A stretch of DNA of 15,313 bases. Source: an uncultured Lachnospiraceae bacterium. GTDB lineage: Bacteria; Bacillota; Clostridia; Lachnospirales; Lachnospiraceae. Positions within the stretch are counted from its first letter, which is position 1. Each line of letters starts with the position of its first letter. A program made the position numbers and the translations under genes. The DNA is taken from assembly GCA_949012915.1 (NCBI GenBank), contig CARLBU010000004.1, positions 1 through 15,313 of the forward strand. The letters run 5' to 3'. The notes below the pieces were generated by a model that had not been told where the DNA came from, did not search any database, and worked only from the letters and a program-made list of their open reading frames with translations. Positions 1 through 15,199 of this stretch are shown one piece after another.

Positions 1-322
1 AGCGGTTAGGGCGTTTGCGCTGCTTGCGTAGCTCCTGCACACGCTCCCATGTGTCACGGTCTATGATTGGCTCGTGGTGGTTCTCAAAGATTGCCTGTTT
101 TTCTTCGGGGTTCTCCTTGCTCTGTTTTACCTTGTAGGACACTTTCTCGGTCTTGAAGTTCACAAGGCAGCCCGTGTATTCCCGGTTTTCAAGGATATGC
201 GCCACGGTGTTTGTCGCCCACTTGCACTCATAGCCGGGGTGGTAGCGGCGTGTGCTTCCCGTCCGGCGGTATTCTAGCGTTCCCGGTGTGGGGGTCTGCT
301 GTTCCGTCAAGACACGGGCTAT
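1..322 (-). pseudogene. Large serine recombinase, internal fragment. Only the recombinase domain is present. The N-terminal catalytic domain is missing, and the C-terminus runs off the window.
   Basis: The minus-strand frame is open from 322 down to 2. It translates to ...RYHPGYECKWATNTVAHILENREYTGCLVNFKTEKVSYKVKQSKENPEEKQAIFENHHEPIIDRDTWERVQELRKQR..., which matches the TnpX/CcrB-type recombinase-domain pattern (Y.G...ENHHE.II....W..VQ). Upstream the frame is closed by a stop at 323-325. There is no room for the ~150-aa resolvase domain before the plus-strand gene at 400. GC is about 58% against about 40% for the neighbours. Confidence 0.6.
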
Positions 323-348
323 CTAATGTGGAAAAATCTGCTTTTGTG

Positions 349-357
349 TGATATACT
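349..357 (+). promoter_or_regulatory. Extended -10 promoter element (TGaTATACT) for the methyltransferase gene
   Basis: tgtgATATACT lies about 45 nt upstream of ATG 400. An RBS (aaaggaaacataATG) precedes the start. Confidence 0.35.
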
Positions 358-399
358 GGTCTTGTAAAAAAACACTGTTCTCATGAGAAAGGAAACATA

Positions 400-972
400 A
401 TGAAAATTATAGGATTACTGATACTTGCCGTGTTTTATGCAGTCTACATCAGCAAGATGATATTGCAAAAAAGAAAAGGCATACAGACAGACCAGATAGC
501 AAAAGGCAAGCAGAAAACAAAGGTATTCTACATTGAGCTGGCTATGAAAATAGCTACTTATTCCGTGGTTGTGGCGGAAGTCCTCAGCCTGTTCTTTGCA
601 CCTCCATTTCTGCCGCAAACGCTTGTTGCTGTTGGTGTGGTTCTTGGATTTATTGGAGATATTCTTTTTACTGTATCAGTCGTAACAATGAAAGACAGTT
701 GGCGGGCTGGCATAGCAGAAAACGATAAAACAGAAATCATTACCGGTGGGATTTACCGCATAAGCAGAAATCCCGCCTTTTTAGCCTTTGATTGTGTTTA
801 TATAGGTTTGCTGCTTATAGCCTTTAACTGGGTTTTGCTGGTGTTTTCTGTTTTTGCCATGACAATGCTTCATCTGCAAATACTACAAGAAGAAAAGTTC
901 TTGTCAAAGGCATTTGGGGCAGAGTACAACGCCTACAAAAGCAAAGTCCGAAGGTATTTTGGACGAAAATAA
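400..972 (+). CDS. Isoprenylcysteine carboxyl methyltransferase (ICMT) / phospholipid methyltransferase (PEMT) family integral membrane protein
   Basis: 190 aa with multiple hydrophobic helices. It carries the family hallmarks GGIYRISRNPAF (RNP motif) and the C-terminal EE..L...FG.EY..Y...V.R. The RBS is good. Confidence 0.75.
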   Translation: MKIIGLLILAVFYAVYISKMILQKRKGIQTDQIAKGKQKTKVFYIELAMKIATYSVVVAEVLSLFFAPPFLPQTLVAVGVVLGFIGDILFTVSVVTMKDSWRAGIAENDKTEIITGGIYRISRNPAFLAFDCVYIGLLLIAFNWVLLVFSVFAMTMLHLQILQEEKFLSKAFGAEYNAYKSKVRRYFGRK

Positions 973-979
973 TTTCAGC

Positions 980-1174
980 TCACGCCGAGTAATGTATTTT
1001 TAGTCCGGCTGTGCTTTCCGCTTCCAGCACTTTCATCATTTTGTCGGTGGTGGCGGTGGTGTCCTGTTTGAAATAGCCCGAAACCACAAGGACGGTGTTC
1101 CCTCTGTGTACTTCTGTCACGCAATCCGGGCGGCGGGCGGTAGTGGCGGTGCTTCTGTTGGGGGTGTCGGTCAT
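980..1174 (-). CDS. Small hypothetical protein (64 aa), translationally coupled to the upstream IstB/DnaC-like gene
   Basis: Its ATG overlaps the stop of the 1171..1797 gene (ATGA overlap). GC is high like its partner. No recognisable motif. Confidence 0.4.
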   Translation of the reverse strand: MTDTPNRSTATTARRPDCVTEVHRGNTVLVVSGYFKQDTTATTDKMMKVLEAESTAGLKIHYSA

Positions 1175-1797
1175 AGGCTCTCCTTTCTGTTCAGCAGCAT
1201 TTTAAGGCGTTCCATTTTCGCCTGTGCTTTGGCTTTTCTGAAATTCTCCCCGGTAATGCAGACGGGGCAGCACATTTCTGTAAGGCGGTCATAAATGCGG
1301 GCGTGGGCGGTGTCCTCCGGGTTCTGCAATTCTTCCAGCGTGAGGTTCGTTGTCACGATTAACGGCTTGCCGCTGCGGTATCGGCTGTCAATCACGTTGT
1401 AAACCTGTTCAAGCCCGTATTCCGTGCCACGCTCCATGCCGAAATCGTCAAGGATAAGCAGGGGGAAGCTGCAAAGGCGGGAGATATATTCGTTGCGGTC
1501 TTTGAAGCTGGCGGCAGCTCCCGCAATACAAGTTTGACCGCATATCGTAACGGGGTATTCTTCATAGGGTGTTTCAAAATATTCGTTTGTTGTGCCTAAA
1601 GGGTAAAACTTTTCTTCTGTGAGGTATTCAAGGGATATTTCCTTTTGCCGCCGTCTGCTCCTGTCACGCCATGCGTTAATAGCCGCAAAGCGTATAACGG
1701 TCTTGCAATAGCTATTGAACGTATACATGATTGTTCTCTGTATGCTTCTGTGCAGGGCATAAATGATTCCCCCTTTCTCCCACATAGGGCGTTGCAT
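1171..1797 (-). CDS. IstB/DnaC-like AAA+ helper ATPase, the replication or transposition helper typical of ICE and IS21 modules, with a degenerate Walker A
   Basis: The motif LLILDDFGMERGTEYGLEQVYNVIDSRYRSGKPLIVTTNLTLEEL...AHARIYDRLTEMCCPVCITGENFR gives the Walker B, sensor and C-terminal pattern of IstB/DnaC. The expected P-loop position reads ICGQTCIAGAAAS, with no GxxGxGKT/S lysine. There is no obvious RBS at 1797, so the true start may be internal. Confidence 0.6.
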   Translation of the reverse strand: MQRPMWEKGGIIYALHRSIQRTIMYTFNSYCKTVIRFAAINAWRDRSRRRQKEISLEYLTEEKFYPLGTTNEYFETPYEEYPVTICGQTCIAGAAASFKDRNEYISRLCSFPLLILDDFGMERGTEYGLEQVYNVIDSRYRSGKPLIVTTNLTLEELQNPEDTAHARIYDRLTEMCCPVCITGENFRKAKAQAKMERLKMLLNRKESL

Positions 1798-1828
1798 GGT
1801 TTACGGTTGCATTTATATAATCTTCCGA

Positions 1829-2146
1829 TTATTCATTAACTCGCTCAACTTTGATAATTACAGGTCTTAATCCGTCATTGCATGAACAAATTGCCACACC
1901 TTTATGCTTGGGGTCAATCCAATCATCAGAGTACCAACCCTCTGCACCATTTGCCAATGCAAATACATACTGATAGATAGCTTTCCATGCTTCGTCACAA
2001 AAGCCCTCCGGCTTCGCATAGTCGGCATAGAATACCTGTCCTTCTTTCATCAAAGGACATATGCTTAAATTGGGAACGCCATATTCCTTTGCTAAATCTT
2101 CTTGAAGCGTTGTTTTCAAGATAGTTAATTTACATTTCTTCATCAT
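1829..2146 (-). CDS. TIGR04076-family small protein (function unknown)
   Basis: 105 aa. The pattern ...CP..KEGQ.F......P.GFC..AW..I...V..L..G.........G....C.DGLRPV..K.ER matches my recollection of TIGR04076 family members. It sits directly downstream of the flavoprotein gene. Confidence 0.5.
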   Translation of the reverse strand: MMKKCKLTILKTTLQEDLAKEYGVPNLSICPLMKEGQVFYADYAKPEGFCDEAWKAIYQYVFALANGAEGWYSDDWIDPKHKGVAICSCNDGLRPVIIKVERVNE

Positions 2147-2166
2147 TTTTCAAAGCCCCTTTTCAT

Positions 2167-2748
2167 TTATTCGTAAATTGCTTTTCCAAATTCATATGCT
2201 TCCCTTAAATGAGTGGTTTTTGAAATCTGAGGTTTCCCGTTTGTTTCACCACAACCACCAGCAAGCAACATACCTTTATCGTGAAAACCGATATAGTTTA
2301 TCAATGTAAACTTGTAGTAAGAAACAGCCTGCTCAAACGTCCAAAAAAAGTTATCAGCGGAAGTCATAAGCAAAGCACAATCATGTATGGGATATTTCTC
2401 ATATCGTCCCAAAGGTGGATTCTCGTCTTTTTCTGCTATACAGTAAAAACGTTCAATAAATGCTTTAATTTTTGATGATACAGTCCAGAAATATAAAGGT
2501 GACGCAAATACGATTAAATCCGCCGTTTTTATCTTTGGAACAAGTGAATTAAAATCATCTTTTTGTACACAAGATTTACCATAGCGACAGGCATTACAGC
2601 CTATGCAGCCATTTACATTCAGTTTGTTCAATGATACCATCTCTACTTGGTGTCCGGCTTCTTTAGCTCCGTTCATAAATGCTTCTGCTAACTGTGACGT
2701 ATTTCCATTGACACGCCCGCCGCCTAAAATAACTATTATTCTTTTCAT
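2167..2748 (-). CDS. Iron-sulfur flavoprotein / flavodoxin-like NAD(P)H-dependent FMN reductase family protein
   Basis: N-terminal MKRIIVILGGGRVNGNTSQL is a flavodoxin-like FMN phosphate-binding loop. CIGCNACRYGKSC is the compact CxxCxxCx5C Isf-type cysteine motif. RBS gggag lies 9 nt upstream of the ATG. Confidence 0.7.
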   Translation of the reverse strand: MKRIIVILGGGRVNGNTSQLAEAFMNGAKEAGHQVEMVSLNKLNVNGCIGCNACRYGKSCVQKDDFNSLVPKIKTADLIVFASPLYFWTVSSKIKAFIERFYCIAEKDENPPLGRYEKYPIHDCALLMTSADNFFWTFEQAVSYYKFTLINYIGFHDKGMLLAGGCGETNGKPQISKTTHLREAYEFGKAIYE

Positions 2749-2800
2749 GCTTTTTACTCCCTTGCTAAATATCGTTCTTTATGCTATTCTATATTCGCAA

Positions 2801-2832
2801 TGTCAAAAAGACAAGTACGCACTTTTTTGACA
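2801..2832. promoter_or_regulatory. Palindromic operator candidate (TGTCAAAAAG-N11-CTTTTTTGACA) in the divergent HxlR/flavoprotein intergenic region
   Basis: A 10/11-bp inverted repeat with an 11-bp spacer sits between the divergently transcribed regulator and flavoprotein genes. This is the classic arrangement for HxlR/MarR-type autoregulated pairs. Confidence 0.45.
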
Positions 2833-2859
2833 AATACTATCTTTAAGGAAAGTACCTAT

Positions 2860-3207
2860 ATGAGCATGGAAAAATTTGAAAAGAGAATTGCTTCTTTGAC
2901 TGATACTCCTTTTGGCTATACATTGTCTATGATTGGTGGAAAATGGCGGCTGGTTATTCTCTATTGGCTCGTTGAATACGACACAATACGTTTTAACGAA
3001 CTACAACGAAAAATCGGAACAATCACCTACAAAACATTAAGTACAGAGTTAAAGGCATTGGAAGCAGACGGACTTATTATTCGTAAAGAATATCCGCAGA
3101 TACCGCCAAAAGTTGAGTATAGTCTTTCAAATAAAGGACGTTCCCTCCTCCCCATTATGGAAAGTATGTGTCAATGGGGAACGGAAAACAGCGGAAAATC
3201 TTTTTGA
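2860..3207 (+). CDS. HxlR-family (MarR-like winged-helix) transcriptional regulator
   Basis: The sequence GGKWRLVILYWLVEYDTIRFNELQRKIGTITYKTLSTELKALEADGLIIRKEYPQIPPKVEYSLSNKGRSL is the HxlR signature. I place the start at ATG 2860 (RBS aaggaaag 7 nt upstream) rather than the ORF-track start at 2800, which lies inside the operator palindrome. Confidence 0.75.
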   Translation: MSMEKFEKRIASLTDTPFGYTLSMIGGKWRLVILYWLVEYDTIRFNELQRKIGTITYKTLSTELKALEADGLIIRKEYPQIPPKVEYSLSNKGRSLLPIMESMCQWGTENSGKSF

Positions 3208-3713
3208 CATAAAGGAATGAGAGAGGGATTTCATCATGCTTATCTTTTGATCTTTGGTTTCTTTGGTTAGGAATAGTGTAGTGCTGGCGGTCTATCTCTT
3301 GTTTTCGGTTGCTTGCTTCTTTACCGTACATGGGCATTTAGTCGTGGGATGAATTGTTCACAGGTGTTAATTAAATTTCAAGTAATAATGCTAAAAATAA
3401 TTGATATAACAACATACATCTGTTATCGTTTGTATAACGAGGTGATTCTATATGGAAGTGACTCATGGACGTAGATAGGTATATTCCATCCAATATCATA
3501 TTGTTTGGTGTATAAAATACAGGCATAAAATGATTACGGCTGATATAGAGAACTGTTTGATAGGGATAGTCAAATCGGATATTCGCAATCCGCTTTGACC
3601 AATGCAAAAATTCTAAAATTATTTTTAATAAAAAAAGAAAGAAGGAAATTTAACAAAAAAAAATAAGAATATACTGGAGCAAAGAGAAAAAAGTAGATTG
3701 TGAGACAATACAG

Positions 3714-3943
3714 CCAGAGTACTTGAAAGGGAACTGTGACTTCGGAGGAAAGTTAGAAGCTCTTAGACTTCTGTCAATCCACTAGGATTTTTTGCCATTC
3801 TCGAATGGCAAAAAAAGGGGTGTGTTTAGCCCGCTGTACGGGCGAATTGCACCCCGATCCGTCCGGTTGGATATGCCTAGATTCAGAAGTCTTAGAGCTT
3901 CTGCTTTTCGGAGAGCGGAACAGTTCCCTTTCAAGTACTCTGG
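3714..3943. repeat. Compound near-perfect inverted repeat and hairpin cluster (230 bp) of unknown identity
   Basis: 3714-3737 is the exact reverse complement of 3920-3943 (24 bp). 3756-3773 matches 3884-3901 as a reverse complement (18 bp, one central mismatch). The two arms are separated by symmetric 18-nt internal loops. The inner 110 nt carries a perfect 13-bp palindrome (3788-3815) and a GGGGTG...CACCCC hairpin with an inner GCCCG/CGGGC stem (3817-3855). Confidence 0.7.
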
Positions 3944-4018
3944 CGTTATTTCCGGGGAATTTTTTTTGGATATGAGTTTCTTCTGCTGTCTGAAAAGGTG
4001 GTATCTTTTTAGATGGTA

Positions 4019-4027
4019 TGTTATAAT
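4019..4027 (+). promoter_or_regulatory. Extended -10 promoter (TGtTATAAT) for addB-addA
   Basis: TGtTATAAT lies about 50 nt upstream of addB ATG 4078. The RBS is AGGAGG at 4066-4071. Confidence 0.45.
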
Positions 4028-4077
4028 AGAAAATAAGAATTTTTATAGCTGACTGGAATAAACAAAGGAGGGATTTC

Positions 4078-7000
4078 ATGTCATTACAACTGATTTTAGG
4101 CGGTTCTGGTTCGGGAAAATCGAGATATTTATATCAGGAATTAATTCGGGAGTCTATGGAACATCCAGAGAAAAATTTTTTATTAATTGTACCAGAACAA
4201 TTTTCTATGCAAACACAGAAGGATATTGTAGAACTTCATCCCAGACATGGTGTGATGAATATTGATATTTTAAGTTTTGGGCGGCTTTCCTATCGGGTTT
4301 TATCGGAAGTGGGAGCGGCACAGCTTCCCGTTTTGGATGATACCGGAAAAAATCTGCTGCTTCGGAAGGTGCTGGAGAATAAGAAGGAAGAGTTAAAACT
4401 TTATGGACAGAAACGGCATACACCGGGGATGGTAAGTGAGATAAAATCGGTTGTATCGGAATTTTATCAGTATGGAATTCGGGAAGAAGAGCAGGAGAAA
4501 ATGCTGGCATGTGCGAAAAAGAAACCGATGCTTTATGCGAAGTTAAGCGATATGCAGGTTATTATACAGGAATTTGAACGGTTTACAAAGGAGCATTATA
4601 TTACAAAAGAGGAGCAGTTAGATGTGCTTTGCCGAGTGATACCAGAGTCTAATATGGTAAAGAGAAGCAGTGTCTGGCTGGATGGTTTTACTGGTTTTAC
4701 ACCGATTCAGTATCAGTTGATTGGATTGTTATTGATGCTTTCTCCTAAAGTAACTCTGACAGTTACAATAGATGCACGGGAAAATCCCTATCGGATTGGC
4801 GGGGAGCAGGAATTATTTCATATGAGTAAAGAGATGATCTCCCATCTGATCCGTTTGGCGGAGGAACGGCAGATTCCTAAAGAGAAGGATATTGTACTGA
4901 CAGGGGAGGAACATCACCGATTCCGGCAGGCAGAGGCACTTTTTTGGCTGGAGAGGAATTTATTTCGTTATCCCTATCTGGCTTATAAGAAAAGGCAGGA
5001 GGCAGTATCGATTCATGTAGCGGGGAATCCGGCAAAAGAGGCGGCATATGTTGCCAGAGAGATTGTCAATTTAGTACGGGAACGGGGGTACCGCTATCGA
5101 GATATTGCAATTATAGCAGGGGATTTGGAAGGATATCGGGATAGTTTAGAGGAAGTGTTAAATGAAAATCAGCTTCCTTATTTTGTCGATCAGAAAAAGG
5201 GAATGATGGGAAATCCTTGTGTGGAGTTTATTCGCAGTACATTGGAGATGATAGCAGATAATTTTTCTTATGAGAGTGTTTTTCGTTATTTAAAAAGCAA
5301 TATGACTTCGATTGCACGGGAAGATGTAGATTTATTGGAAAATTATTGTCTGGCTATGGGGATTCGGGGACAGAGACAGTGGGAAAAACTTTGGGTACGC
5401 AGTATGAAAAAGGACGAGCCGCTTGAGTTAGAGCGGATGAATCAGCTTCGGGAGGCAGTGCTGCTGCCGATTCAGACCCTTTCTTCTGTCTGGAAGCGGA
5501 AAAAAGGAACCGTAAAGGAAAAGATAGAAGCATTATATGGGTTTTTAAAGGAAATCGGTCTGCAGGAGAAAATGGAAGCATATGAGAGTACATTTCGGGA
5601 GCAGGGGCATTTGGCAAAGGAAAAAGAATATAAGCAGGTCTATCCGTTAGTAATGGAATTATTTGATAAAGTGGTGGGACTGCTGGGAGAGGAACAGATT
5701 TCGGCACAGGAGTTAAACGGGATTTTGGATGCGGGATTTGAAGAATTAAAAGTGGGATTGATTCCTCCTTCGATCGATCAGATTTTAATTGGAGATATGG
5801 AGCGGACTCGCCTGAATGAAATTCGGGTTTTGTTCTTTTTGGGATTAAATGACGGGATTATTCCTAAGAACAGTGGAAAAGGGGGGATGTTCTCACAGAT
5901 GGAGCGGCAGTTTTTAAAAGAAGAGAAGATTACGCTTTCTCCTACGCAAAAAGAAAATGCCTATATTCAGAAGTTCTATTTGTATCTGAATCTGACGAAG
6001 CCTTCTGAACGGCTGTATTTAAGCTACAGCAGAAATACTCAGGCGGGTGAAGCAATTCGTCCCTCTTATTTAGTCTATACGATAGAAAAATTATTTCCGG
6101 CACTGGAGCAGATGGACGAGGAAAAGAGAGAGAAAGAGCTGCAGCAGATTACAACACCAGAGGGAACATTACACTATTGGATTTCGAAGCTGTTAGAATT
6201 TAGTCAAAATCCGATTCAGCAGAATGCCGATCCCATTTTTTTGGAACTGACTTCTTGGTATGCGGGACAAGAAAATTGGAAGGGGCGAATGGATCAGCTA
6301 TTTGAAGCGGTTTCCTATCACAATACCGAAAGCGGAATAGGAAAGCTGGCAGCGGCGGCACTGTATGGACCGCAGCCGATTAATAGTGTAACTCGGTTAG
6401 AACGTTATGCTGCCTGTGCATTTGCTCATTTTTTAACCTATGGGCTTCGGCTTGCAAAACGTCAGGAATTTGAAATGGCAGCAGTGGATATGGGAAATCT
6501 GTTTCATAATTCGATTGAGCGTTATTCGAATAAGATAAAGGAAAACGGGATGAAATGGAGTATGGTGACCCCAGAAGATCAGCAGAAGATGGTAAAAGAA
6601 TCTGTGGAGGAGGCGTCCGCTGACTATGGAAATCATGTGCTGCAGAGTACGGCAAGAAATGCTTATTTTATTGATCGATTAGAGAGGATTGTAAATCGGA
6701 CAGTCTGGGCATTGAAGAAACAGCTGCAGAAAGGAAAGTTTGAGCCAGTTAATTATGAGGTCTTTTTTTCTCCTGCCGATCAGTTAGATGCCCTTACGAT
6801 TCCGATTTCGGATCAGGAAAATATGTACCTTGCCGGACGGTTGGATCGGATGGATCTCTATGAGGATGAAGAACATATCTATATTAAAGTAATTGATTAT
6901 AAATCTGGGGTTGCTGAATTTAATCTGTCCTCGGTCTACTATGGTCTGCAGATTCAGCTAGTAGTTTATATGGAAGCGGCAATGGAGACAGAACAGCGGA

Positions 7001-7548
7001 AGCGGGTGGAGAAAACCGTGATTCCTGCAGGAATTTTTTATTATAATATTAAAGATCCGGTAATTGAAGAGACAGAAGAGATGGGAGAGGAACAGATTGA
7101 AAGGGAACTGCTTTCTAAGCTAAAGATGAACGGATTAGTCAACCGTGCATCGGAAGTAATTGCACTTTTAGATTCCTCTATGGACAAACATTCTGATGTC
7201 ATTCCGATTAGTTATAATAAAGATGGGAGTTTAAGTAAAAATTCTTCTGCTGTCGATACCAGGCAGTTTGAAGCAGTATCCGCTTATGTACGAAATCGGA
7301 TACGCCAAATGGGAGCAGAAATATTAGATGGAAATACACAGATTTCTCCTTATCGGAAGGGAACCGAAACCGGATGTGATTACTGTGAATTTCGGGAGGT
7401 CTGCGGATTTGACGAAAAGAGTACAGGATATGAATACCGAAGACTGCATGAGATGGACAATGAGGATATTTTACAAAAGATGCAGAAAGAAGTAGAGGAA
7501 GCAGCGGGACAAATGATTCGGATAGAGGAGGGAGAAGAGTGGCAGTAA
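4078..7548 (+). CDS. addB: ATP-dependent helicase/deoxyribonuclease subunit B (AddB/RexB)
   Basis: 1156 aa. The N-terminal GGSGSGKS is the degenerate AddB Walker A. The C-terminal RecB-family nuclease domain has the Fe-S cysteine cluster (GCDYCEFREVCGFD). Size and gene order immediately upstream of addA are as expected. Strong RBS. Confidence 0.9.
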   Translation: MSLQLILGGSGSGKSRYLYQELIRESMEHPEKNFLLIVPEQFSMQTQKDIVELHPRHGVMNIDILSFGRLSYRVLSEVGAAQLPVLDDTGKNLLLRKVLENKKEELKLYGQKRHTPGMVSEIKSVVSEFYQYGIREEEQEKMLACAKKKPMLYAKLSDMQVIIQEFERFTKEHYITKEEQLDVLCRVIPESNMVKRSSVWLDGFTGFTPIQYQLIGLLLMLSPKVTLTVTIDARENPYRIGGEQELFHMSKEMISHLIRLAEERQIPKEKDIVLTGEEHHRFRQAEALFWLERNLFRYPYLAYKKRQEAVSIHVAGNPAKEAAYVAREIVNLVRERGYRYRDIAIIAGDLEGYRDSLEEVLNENQLPYFVDQKKGMMGNPCVEFIRSTLEMIADNFSYESVFRYLKSNMTSIAREDVDLLENYCLAMGIRGQRQWEKLWVRSMKKDEPLELERMNQLREAVLLPIQTLSSVWKRKKGTVKEKIEALYGFLKEIGLQEKMEAYESTFREQGHLAKEKEYKQVYPLVMELFDKVVGLLGEEQISAQELNGILDAGFEELKVGLIPPSIDQILIGDMERTRLNEIRVLFFLGLNDGIIPKNSGKGGMFSQMERQFLKEEKITLSPTQKENAYIQKFYLYLNLTKPSERLYLSYSRNTQAGEAIRPSYLVYTIEKLFPALEQMDEEKREKELQQITTPEGTLHYWISKLLEFSQNPIQQNADPIFLELTSWYAGQENWKGRMDQLFEAVSYHNTESGIGKLAAAALYGPQPINSVTRLERYAACAFAHFLTYGLRLAKRQEFEMAAVDMGNLFHNSIERYSNKIKENGMKWSMVTPEDQQKMVKESVEEASADYGNHVLQSTARNAYFIDRLERIVNRTVWALKKQLQKGKFEPVNYEVFFSPADQLDALTIPISDQENMYLAGRLDRMDLYEDEEHIYIKVIDYKSGVAEFNLSSVYYGLQIQLVVYMEAAMETEQRKRVEKTVIPAGIFYYNIKDPVIEETEEMGEEQIERELLSKLKMNGLVNRASEVIALLDSSMDKHSDVIPISYNKDGSLSKNSSAVDTRQFEAVSAYVRNRIRQMGAEILDGNTQISPYRKGTETGCDYCEFREVCGFDEKSTGYEYRRLHEMDNEDILQKMQKEVEEAAGQMIRIEEGEEWQ

Positions 7549-11433: not shown

Positions 11434-11665
11434 CTGTGTATTCCAACCGGAACAGTCGCAGTATTTTGGTTGATTAAAACCGTTTTTGTGTGATTTTAGA
11501 TAGTTTAACCTCATCAAGGAAGTCCCCTGCTTCTAAGCCGCCAAGGCGAAAGCGGTGGGTTGGGGGCAGGTGGGGTACAAGCCCTATTTGACAAGCTGCG
11601 ATAGCAGCATAGGATTACAAATTTCTTTTGAATTCCAACAGTCGGAGTAGAGAATTTTTACGGGG

Positions 11666-11860
11666 CGTTGTTTTTAGGAGGAATAAACCAGCAGACCGAA
11701 TAAAATATTTTTGTGAAGTATCATTTCCAGGAGAAACAAGCTAATAGGCAGAGTAAAAATGTTTGTGAGGCATTGTTTCCAGGAGGAACAAGCCAATAGG
11801 CGGAATAAAAACGTTTATGAGGCATTATTTCTAGGGGGAACGAAACAGCGGGTAGCATAG
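11666..11860. repeat. Degenerate tandem repeat array, about four copies of a roughly 52-bp unit, with a diverged fifth copy near 11445-11500
   Basis: The units at 11666-11718, 11719-11770, 11771-11822 and 11823-~11860 share the consensus CATTGTTTCCAGGAGGAACAAGCCAATAGGCGGAATAAAAACGTTTATGAGG. Every position drifts, and there is no alternation of conserved repeats with unique spacers. Confidence 0.65.
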
Positions 11861-14736: not shown

Positions 14737-15099
14737 GGGGTTGTACTGGTTTCGACGGGGATTATGAAGTTGGAGAAGCCACCTGCGGGTCGGAACCGCA
14801 TTAGTAAACCGAAAATTAAATATAAACGCAAACGAAGATTACGCGTTCGCTGCTTAATAGCAGCTGTCGCTCTTAGGTAGCTTACTGCTTAAGAATCCGG
14901 CATCAAGGAGGTAAGGAACTTTGTATCCAAAGCTTTGAGGGTATAAAAGAAAAATGAAGCTACTAAAGCCGGAAACCTGTCCATGGGTGTCCGATAGAGG
15001 GAACCGTATAGAAAAAGGCTATGCATAAAACAGGGACTGTGGTGGGAGATGCTTTGATGGAGGAGTCTTCGGACAGGGGTTCGATTCCCCTCAGCTCCA
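14737..15099 (+). ncRNA. ssrA: tmRNA (transfer-messenger RNA, SsrA)
   Basis: The 5' end GGGGTTGTACTGGTTTCGACGGGG and the 3' tRNA-like end GGACAGGGGTTCGATTCCCCTCAGCTCCA form an acceptor stem with the G3:U70 alanine identity pair. The internal tag ORF GCA AAC GAA GAT TAC GCG TTC GCT GCT TAA TAG (14828-14857) encodes ANEDYAFAA and ends in a double stop. CCA is not encoded. Confidence 0.9.
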
Positions 15100-15125
15100 T
15101 CGGTTAAACGTAACCGTGTTATGTT

Positions 15126-15199
15126 CGAGGTGTGGCTCAGTTTGGTAGAGCGCTACGTTCGGGACGTAGAAGTCGCGTGTTCGAATCACGTCACCTCGA
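15126..15199 (+). tRNA. tRNA-Pro (anticodon CGG)
   Basis: A manual cloverleaf gives a 7-bp acceptor stem CGAGGTG/CACCTCG, U8, D-stem GCTC/GAGC, anticodon stem CTACG/CGTAG, anticodon loop TTCGGGA (U33, CGG, G37) and T-arm GCGTG-TTCGAAT-CACGT. It is 74 nt, with no encoded CCA. Confidence 0.85.

Follow-up and report, generated by a model that had tools for sequence, protein, structure and literature searches.

A compound hairpin upstream of addBA in an uncultured Lachnospiraceae bacterium is probably one copy of a dispersed TwoAYGGAY-like repeat

REP, BIME and REPIN elements are proteobacterial repeats mobilised by RAYT transposases. The pneumococcal BOX, Bacillus cereus bcr1 and Correia elements are structured repeats of Firmicutes and Neisseria that resemble miniature inverted-repeat transposable elements (MITEs); compensatory changes have been reported for bcr1, and Correia elements affect neighbouring transcription in the outward direction. 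TwoAYGGAY (Rfam RF01731) is a candidate RNA from gut metagenomes, Clostridiales and gamma-proteobacteria, with a closing stem that is often very long (Weinberg et al. 2010, PMC2864571). According to Gardner and Eldai, its two GGA loops could bind CsrA; their paper also mentions two tandem G-A pairs in a stem (PMC4333381). The architecture, consisting of a long rod, a three-way junction and two hairpins, is already known as an Rfam family, but no function has been demonstrated for the family since 2010, and it stands in the Csr/Rsm-binding clan (CL00106) only for its GGA loops. Here we analysed a stretch of 15,313 nt from an uncultured Lachnospiraceae bacterium (contig CARLBU010000004.1, hereafter the window), in which a preliminary description had noted a large nested inverted repeat upstream of the addBA operon. 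Our data suggest that this hairpin is most likely one copy, of the flank type that we call A, of a dispersed TwoAYGGAY-like repeat, and that it forms the right end of a ~6.1-kb inserted block. New here are a TwoAYGGAY-like module without GGA loops, its ~100 copies with type-A and type-B flanks, a rule of divergent pairing, and ends shared with a second repeat family.

The inverted repeat is real and far above chance. The repeat finder returned outer arms of 31 nt each at 3707-3737 and 3920-3950 (94% complementary), which pair perfectly over 3714-3737/3920-3943 with one more pair, G3713-C3944. The inner arms of 26 nt (3748-3773/3884-3909, 85% complementary) contain an 18-bp core at 3756-3773/3884-3901, in which T3764-T3893 is the sole mismatch. 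The same tool found the perfect 13-bp palindrome (3788-3800/3803-3815), and GGGGTG and CACCCC (3817-3822/3850-3855) stand around GCCCG-CTGTA-CGGGC; all these nested parts lie where the preliminary description had placed them. Folded as RNA, 3700-3960 reaches -134.9 kcal/mol on the + strand (z = -11.6), a value that none of 200 shuffles matched. The - strand reaches -121.7 kcal/mol (z = -12.4), again with no shuffle as low. The internal loop could form tandem G-A pairs, judged by inspection only (G3738-A3919/A3739-G3918 and G3745-A3912/A3746-G3911). The description had also held that no T-run lies at terminator distance, which was wrong: a T8 run at 3960-3967, 16 nt beyond the outer stem, was called terminator-like by a scan together with 3938-3957.

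In a sensitive scan of 3300-4100, the + strand at 3740-3916 matched the TwoAYGGAY model over its full length (1-168 of 168) with 65.3 bits, above the gathering score of 43 (E = 1.5e-10), and a sister copy scored 68.1 bits. The earlier suggestion that an annotated family might be matched was thus borne out. The gathering-mode Rfam scan of the whole window gave only a tmRNA and a tRNA and missed the match, and with the Rfam speed filters only one of ~10 copies was reported in a 48-kb scan (loci L021, L024, L087 and L018). The other long hairpin repeat of the window served as a negative control and had no Rfam match at E <= 1; therefore, a long hairpin alone is insufficient to trigger the model. 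Like TwoAYGGAY, the window-type repeat has a very long closing stem P1 over two hairpins, seen in the fold, in the model alignment and in covariation in all helices, together with a three-way junction and an internal loop in the second hairpin. The habitat and taxon, gut and Clostridiales, are shared. Canonical members can also be multi-copy, for example with ~7 copies and repeated flanks in Psychromonas ingrahamii; the canonical Psychromonas sequence had no match in plasmids and E. coli genomes. Unlike TwoAYGGAY, the repeat has an extra outer stem of 25 bp beyond the model and a longer J3 strand, and it lacks the loops that gave the family its name. AYGGAY occurs nowhere in the 65 aligned copies, neither terminal loop contains GGA, and the loops read TCTCGA/TTGT and CTGTA/CTGCA across the alignment. 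When the window copy is aligned to the model, both terminal loops fall in local ends. The copies in another Lachnospiraceae metagenome-assembled genome (MAG) also lack AYGGAY in their loops. Three GGA motifs, CGGAGG, TAGGAT and GCGGAAC, are near-invariant and unpaired, and are located in junction or internal-loop strands. Neither ~100 copies, nor type-A/B flanks, nor strictly divergent pairs are described in the TwoAYGGAY literature that we read.

The repeat is dispersed, non-coding and intergenic, ~270 bp long, and present in roughly 100 copies in a closely related mouse-gut Lachnospiraceae genome. A 19-mer of the inner stem (AGAAGCTCTWAGACTTCTG) occurs in 86 stretches of a species-representative genome collection, ~80 of them in a single MAG (MGBC128194, an uncultured Lachnospiraceae), and many lie 40-130 nt from contig ends. 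An nhmmer search with the 182-nt core returned 130 places, with ~180 bits on the true strand versus ~90 on the other, and this set contains 65 distinct full-length copies with flanks. The high copy number on which the preliminary description had asked for a check is thereby established. Every internal copy is complete, and none is truncated at its 5' end. In the window's species, larger contigs fetched via the window proteins hold two further copies within ~34 kb, so that this species has at least three copies in ~34 kb; several same-species contigs break inside the element. Another Lachnospiraceae MAG carries copies with an expanded hairpin 2. A strict core pattern found no viral contigs and only five metagenome contigs, and phage and plasmid collections searched by blastn contained no match to the element.

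At the orthologous sites of relatives, the element is absent. In four relatives with AddB 77-89% identical, NAD synthase lies beside a divergent 155-aa gene, addB follows at 80-360 nt, and none of the four (0/4) has the element upstream of addB. The only match in these loci is a partial copy after addA in L101 (AddB 89% identical). In the window's species, genes and copies run as follows: NAD synthase, the 155-aa gene, a type-B copy (-), an acetyltransferase, a serine-recombinase fragment, PEMT/ICMT, an IstB-like gene, a 105-aa gene, FMN reductase, HxlR, the type-A copy (+), the addB promoter and addBA. The window copy and its inverted type-B partner 5.8 kb upstream bound a ~6.1-kb block inserted between the 155-aa gene and addB, and both flanking divergent promoters are intact. 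On the left, homology with the empty sites stops after …GAGTGAGGG, and the outer end of the type-B copy (L105 ~7237-7330) carries three to four degenerate tandem copies of a 23-nt tip, GGGGAGGACGCTAGAGTGGGGAA. On the right, homology resumes at GGTGGTATC, in a promoter block common to relatives (GGTGGTATCTTTT…TGnTATAAT, window 3997-4027), which therefore sets the right edge of the inserted block. An addBA leader or riboswitch-type cis-regulator is refuted by these data, since the element is absent in four relatives and lies upstream of the promoter block. In addition, the genes downstream of type-A sister copies are functionally unrelated and show no common theme, so a link to addBA finds no support. 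Any effect on addBA is incidental at most, and the repeats flanking the operon reflect a repeat-rich genome, not DNA-end-processing biology. For annotation, the hairpin beside this DNA-repair operon is to be treated as a genome-wide repeat and not as a regulator of addBA. The island genes (window 1-3207 plus L105/L106 7600-12800), in which the serine recombinase is present as a C-terminal fragment and the IstB-like gene likewise as a fragment, are absent from the four relatives and look like a decayed integrated element. The HxlR open reading frame (ORF) as listed gave nothing on exact look-up, and its start codon is probably wrong.

The fold of the repeat is kept by compensatory change. Covariation was counted in a 65-copy alignment (A1) on its RNAalifold structure and compared with 500 shuffles and with a control in which the pairing partners were slid. 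Each copy reads aCAGCCAGAG, a variable arm, GCTGT, GACTTCGGAGG, …, CGGAGAGCGGA, ACAGC, the complementary arm and CTCTGGCGTCC. Standard pairs fill 98.2% of the cells, versus 85.4% in the shuffles and 37-47% with slid partners. Changes on both sides affect 45 of the 76 pairs (shuffled mean 32.2) and 650 cells (shuffled mean 181.9), and the covariation score is 0.378 against a shuffled mean of 0.135; none of the 500 shuffles reaches any of the observed values. Each of the 65 copies has its own outer-stem haplotype, and these differ pairwise by 36.9%, yet only 3.2% of their positions are unpaired. In the inner stem (helix 3), 13 of 23 pairs are altered on both sides and 98.9% are paired. Hairpin 2 is paired in every copy and undergoes whole-helix swaps, GGGGTG/CACCCC to GGCACG/CGTGCC and GCCCG/CGGGC to GCCTC/GAGGC, as does hairpin 1 (GCCATTC/GAATGGC to GGGCAC/GTGCCC). 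No variation is seen in the junction strands, at the T-T mismatch 3764/3893, in the symmetric GGAG loops or in the TGTTTA/GAATTG internal loop. Because these non-paired features stay fixed, simple arm-to-arm homogenisation is unlikely to be the only force. At the variable pairs of the + strand, G-U outnumbers A-C by 114 to 34, and the direction is the same in both flank types (63:16 in A/C, 51:18 in B). This asymmetry suggests that the constrained strand is the + (Rfam-sense) one, whether it acts as RNA or as single-stranded DNA. Together, the strong covariation and the one-strand preference for G-U support the structured-RNA candidate of the preliminary description, which had also named a MITE-like insertion and a protein-binding platform. 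A guide-RNA reading of the variable outer-stem arms was dropped, as a search of 490 kb returned no meaningful 15-mer matches to them elsewhere.

The copies fall into flank types with a strict arrangement. In type A and its variant C, gAAAcGTAaATTGtGGaAcAATAcAGCC lies upstream and GGCGTCCTCTTTGGGA downstream, and upstream conservation reaches back only ~27 nt from the stem. Type B carries CTCTATGGAT-AATGAATCAAC … GGCAGGAAAAGACAGC on the upstream side, and its tail is rich in C. Neighbours less than 2 kb apart are oriented '-+' in 34 cases and '+-' in none, usually as B(-) followed by A(+). The pair spacers of 139-670 nt are AT-rich, variable and at times tandemly repeated. Four other pair spacers, of 1.1-1.3 kb, each enclose a single ordinary gene, and none of these genes is a transposase (named by eye: esterase-like, XRE-type helix-turn-helix, HAD-type hydrolase and membrane protein). 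All copies are intergenic, the overlap of 2/59 with an ORF being confined to a crude ORF call. Type A is co-directional with the next gene in 20 cases versus 3. Most type-B copies lie 10-150 nt from the 3' end of a convergent gene, and their opposite strand presents the hairpin with a T-rich run behind it (GCTGTTTTTTCC). A T-rich run also lies within 45 nt past the tail in 14 of 26 type-A/C copies, beginning 6-12 nt after the tail in eight; neither an A-run nor a T-run is a clean marker of flank type. No neighbour protein family recurs in the sampled loci around copies (~520 kb in all) beyond generic paralogues and spurious ORFs inside the repeat.

Several smaller repeats occur in or near the pair spacers. 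A module of ~90 nt at window 11490-11580 (…TCAAGGAAGTCC…GCTTCTAAGCCGCCAAGGCGAAAGCGGTGGGTTGGGGG…) has ~30 matches in 28 loci of the related MAG, and a 30-nt module at window 3562-3597 (TCAAATCGGATATTCGCAATCCGCTTTGACC), which lies before the element in AT-rich spacer DNA, occurs 23 times in 20 loci; both are often found in pair spacers. In the pair spacer of L010 (6900-7180), five tandem units of ~70 nt starting CGT(A/G)GATTGTGGAATAAT correspond to the type-A 5' flank without the hairpin. The type-A 5' motif TTGTGGRAC and 3' motif TTTGGRAY resemble direct repeats and co-vary, by eye, in ~11/18 copies, with L029, L021, L026, L016 and L046 among the copies that show them. This co-variation could reflect subfamily ancestry or be a relic of the insertion mechanism.

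The preliminary description had further held that both spacers flanking addBA carry such elements. This is true of both spacers, but the second element belongs to a different family. After addA lies IR2, a 147-nt inverted repeat (11291-11437/11845-11991) that forms a separate multi-copy family without an Rfam match, with its units arranged as a (-)(+) pair and at least eight copies in the loci sampled. Relatives have only a short addA-SASP spacer. Every IR2 copy consists of ACAGC, a variable compensated arm, a conserved core of ~85 nt, the complementary arm and GCGTCC. The end motifs ACAGC…GCGTCC are thus common to IR2 and the TwoAYGGAY-like family, whereas the cores are unrelated. Asymmetric ends shared by two unrelated cores suggest a common strand-specific recognition step, in transposition or in processing. 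A scan for the chassis defined by these ends found only two size classes, IR2 and the TwoAYGGAY-like repeat, and no empty chassis hairpins without a core. The IR2 tip is duplicated at 11254-11286/11289-11321, which parallels the tip repeats at the left block end. Between the IR2 units, a 52-nt unit is repeated three times in tandem (11703-11858; 100%, 81% and 62% identity to the reference copy), and this unit has no matches in the sampled loci. The coordinates of the parts of the window copy are collected in Table 1.

Table 1. Parts of the window copy and adjoining features (window positions).
Feature	Positions	Strand	Basis
Complete unit of type A, from the conserved 5' flank through the compound hairpin to the 3' tail	3688-3950	+	Conserved among 31 type-A/C copies
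Unit edges: conservation from ~27 nt before AGCC (gAAAcGTAaATTGtGGaAcAATAcAGCCAGAG) to GGCGTCC	3688-3950	+	31 type-A/C copies
TAGATT, -10-like box at fixed distance from the stem (putative promoter role)	3694-3699	+	TAnATT in nearly all type-A/C copies
Outer stem, 5' arm; foot GCCAGAG and top CTGT conserved, middle hypervariable	3713-3737	+	
Outer stem, 3' arm	3920-3944	+	
Symmetric internal loop, 5' strand (GACTTCGGAG), near-invariant	3738-3747	+	65-copy alignment
Symmetric internal loop, 3' strand (GGAGAGCGGA), invariant	3910-3919	+	65-copy alignment
Inner stem, 5' arm, with conserved T3764-T3893 mismatch	3748-3773	+	
Inner stem, 3' arm	3884-3909	+	
Rfam RF01731 (TwoAYGGAY) match, model 1-168	3740-3916	+	
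Junction strand J1 (…CTAGGA), TAGGAT near-invariant	3774-3787	+	
Hairpin 1; compensated variants GCCATTC/GAATGGC, GGGCAC/GTGCCC, GTCATC/GATGAC; no AYGGAY loop	3788-3815	+	
Hairpin 2; internal loop TGTTTA/GAATTG invariant; no AYGGAY loop	3817-3855	+	
Junction strand J3 (GATCCGTCCGGTTGGAT…), CCGTCCGG conserved	3856-3883	+	
3' terminal motif CGTTAT, diverged window form of the family tail (G)CGTCC	3944-3949	+	
Terminator-like small stem and T8 just past the element	3938-3967	+	Terminator scan
addB promoter block, outside the element (GGTGGTATC … TGnTATAAT)	3997-4027	+	Conserved in relatives

We propose that the unit would be transcribed on the + strand, outward from the pair spacer, from the TAnATT box, giving a folded RNA of ~250-270 nt that would often end near a T-run. 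Selection would act on this folded RNA or on an equivalent single DNA strand. The unit itself would be duplicated as DNA, possibly by an enzyme that reads the hairpin foot (ACAGC … GCGTCC); spread as a DNA unit is suggested because the 5' flank is copied along with the repeat. Locally, the rod and the T8 run may stop hxlR or island transcripts before the addB promoter, or may allow some read-through into addB. Of these steps, which we infer with decreasing confidence, the + strand fold stands first, duplication as DNA second and the local transcript stop third.

Several points weigh against this account. Transcription, the promoter and the RNA ends are predicted from sequence, and the TAGATT box was not called by a consensus promoter scan, nor do the type-A/C copies share a conserved -35. 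The G-U bias is also expected from a strand-specific hairpin of single-stranded DNA, and template-switch correction of quasi-palindromes could compensate the arms without selection on RNA. The homology to TwoAYGGAY may be distant or convergent because the score comes mostly from helices and the naming loops are missing. The figure of ~100 copies belongs to a closely related genome rather than to the window's own, since the window locus is not among the MGBC128194 loci and the best copy there is 92.5% identical. The block may have moved as a bounded unit, or it could have arisen in two steps, the pair being inserted first and the island entering the spacer later. As to the mode of insertion, no transposase, RAYT or reverse transcriptase lies beside any copy in the ~520 kb, comparison of filled and empty sites gave no target-site duplication (at most a shared GG), and the ends of the 65 copies showed no direct repeats. 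Of the MITE-like insertion put forward in the preliminary description, the copy number, the presence/absence pattern and the annotated family hold, but neither a target-site duplication nor, in the ~520 kb sampled, a cognate transposase was found. The repeat shares with MITEs that it is short and non-coding, with many dispersed copies and presence/absence differences between related genomes.

The main rival is a purely DNA-level selfish element of the REP/REPIN or IS200/IS605-derived type, in which one strand would fold during replication, an HUH-type transposase would read the hairpin foot (ACAG|C … G|CGTCC) and RNA would be irrelevant. We regard it as possible but rather doubtful. Much of the evidence fits it: the asymmetric conserved termini that flank the hairpin in two unrelated cores, the lack of a detectable target-site duplication, the 20:3 bias with respect to the direction of genes, taken as a stand-in for that of replication, the tolerance of G-T over A-C on one strand, the BIME-like inverted pairs and the terminal tips tandemly duplicated at two independent ends. 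However, a transposase footprint would not need an interior nearly as constrained as this one, with its three-way junction, invariant loops and covarying hairpins, and the fixed U-U mismatch and internal loops persist where arm-to-arm correction should erase them. In addition, the unit is ~10x longer than REPs, the inverted pairs contradict a single replication-strand orientation, and no Y1/HUH gene was seen in the ~520 kb sampled. A cis-acting signal is improbable as the reason for the element, whether as a terminator or insulator between the hxlR island and the addB promoter or as a promoter or leader that serves addBA from upstream. The terminator-like stem with T8 directly past it, the convergent 3' ends that type-B copies abut at 10-150 nt with a T-rich run on the opposite strand, and the co-directionality of type A with downstream genes all speak for such a role. 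Yet the element is not conserved at addB in relatives, whose promoter block stands without it, a simple terminator needs no 250-nt three-way junction with invariant loops, and only about half of the type-A copies have a nearby T-run. Most probably, punctuation of this kind is a by-product, or explains why the element is tolerated rather than why it exists.

Readings that give the RNA a partner fare worse. The copies could be products or substrates of a reverse transcriptase encoded elsewhere, for which the RNA would be template or cofactor. This is quite unlikely: motif (not profile) searches for a reverse-transcriptase-like ORF (PQG…YxDD or YxDD) found none near the copies in the ~520 kb, no internal copy is 5' truncated, and the 5' flank with its -10-like box is copied too, unlike what copying from a transcript that starts downstream of the box would give. 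Slightly less probable still is a small RNA that sequesters CsrA/Rsm, as the Rfam clan implies. The CsrA binding proposed by Gardner and Eldai (PMC4333381) and the three near-invariant unpaired GGA motifs would suit it, but the defining feature fails, as AYGGAY is found in 0/65 copies and the terminal loops are without GGA, and ~100 gene copies are unlike any known Csr sponge. The sponge idea is weakened more generally, because this lineage keeps the architecture without the GGA loops and behaves as a mobile repeat. Finally, arms of 24-31 bp around 182 bp and a serine-recombinase fragment in the island might suggest an inverton, with the outer repeats as recombinase sites around an invertible promoter segment. 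We rejected this with near certainty, as all 15 same-species contigs (nine + six) show one orientation with a spacer 99.9-100% identical, the interior is itself a nested covarying hairpin, and the ~100 copies have unique arms.

Read as a dispersed TwoAYGGAY-like repeat, the element can be set beside other repeat systems. Like REP, BIME and REPIN elements, it is a high-copy intergenic palindrome with foot motifs on a variable stem, forms inverted pairs with linkers, is placed after gene 3' ends and leaves no target-site duplication. It differs from them in its unit of ~250 nt with a conserved branched interior, versus 20-40 nt, in its Firmicute host, in the lack of a RAYT in the sampled ~520 kb and in pair spacers that can hold genes. 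By description, it resembles BOX, bcr1 and Correia elements in its ~100 or more intergenic copies, its stable fold, its compensatory changes (as in bcr1), a possible outward effect on neighbouring transcription (as in Correia elements) and a mobilising enzyme that is unknown or acts in trans. Unlike these, the window-type unit matches an Rfam RNA family, and the clear target-site duplications and short terminal inverted repeats of bcr1 and Correia elements were not found here. As in composite transposons and MITE-bounded units, two inverted copies bound cargo that is absent from relatives, and four other pairs enclose single genes. In contrast to composite transposons, the ends carry no transposase, a target-site duplication is lacking, the typical pair holds just 140-670 nt of AT-rich spacer, and a two-step origin is possible.

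A broader reading, which we put forward tentatively and think rather unlikely, is that the TwoAYGGAY-like module and the IR2 core are swappable cargoes of one hairpin chassis copied by a strand-specific enzyme, that the inverted pairs are the ends of a gene-mobilising unit, and that the module is kept at ~100 loci because transcription is punctuated by its RNA or by the hairpin itself. If so, outward-reading structured RNAs would insulate inserted DNA from host promoters, and TwoAYGGAY-type RNAs would be parts of mobile elements and not CsrA sponges. The ~100 paralogues, two flank types, pairing rule, shared ends and filled-versus-empty site offer a system for probing the fold. In practice, these repeats break short-read assemblies of gut Lachnospiraceae and are missed by the default filters of Rfam.

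Two further observations concern neighbouring DNA. Downstream of the window, strains differ at ~17.2-19.7 kb (L108 against L109/L110): two of them carry an N6/N4 DNA methyltransferase together with a 293-aa gene, both of which the third lacks. In the window itself, two ordinary features lie side by side, the tmRNA gene (14737-15102, 160 bits) directly preceding a tRNA gene (15126-15199, 64.7 bits).

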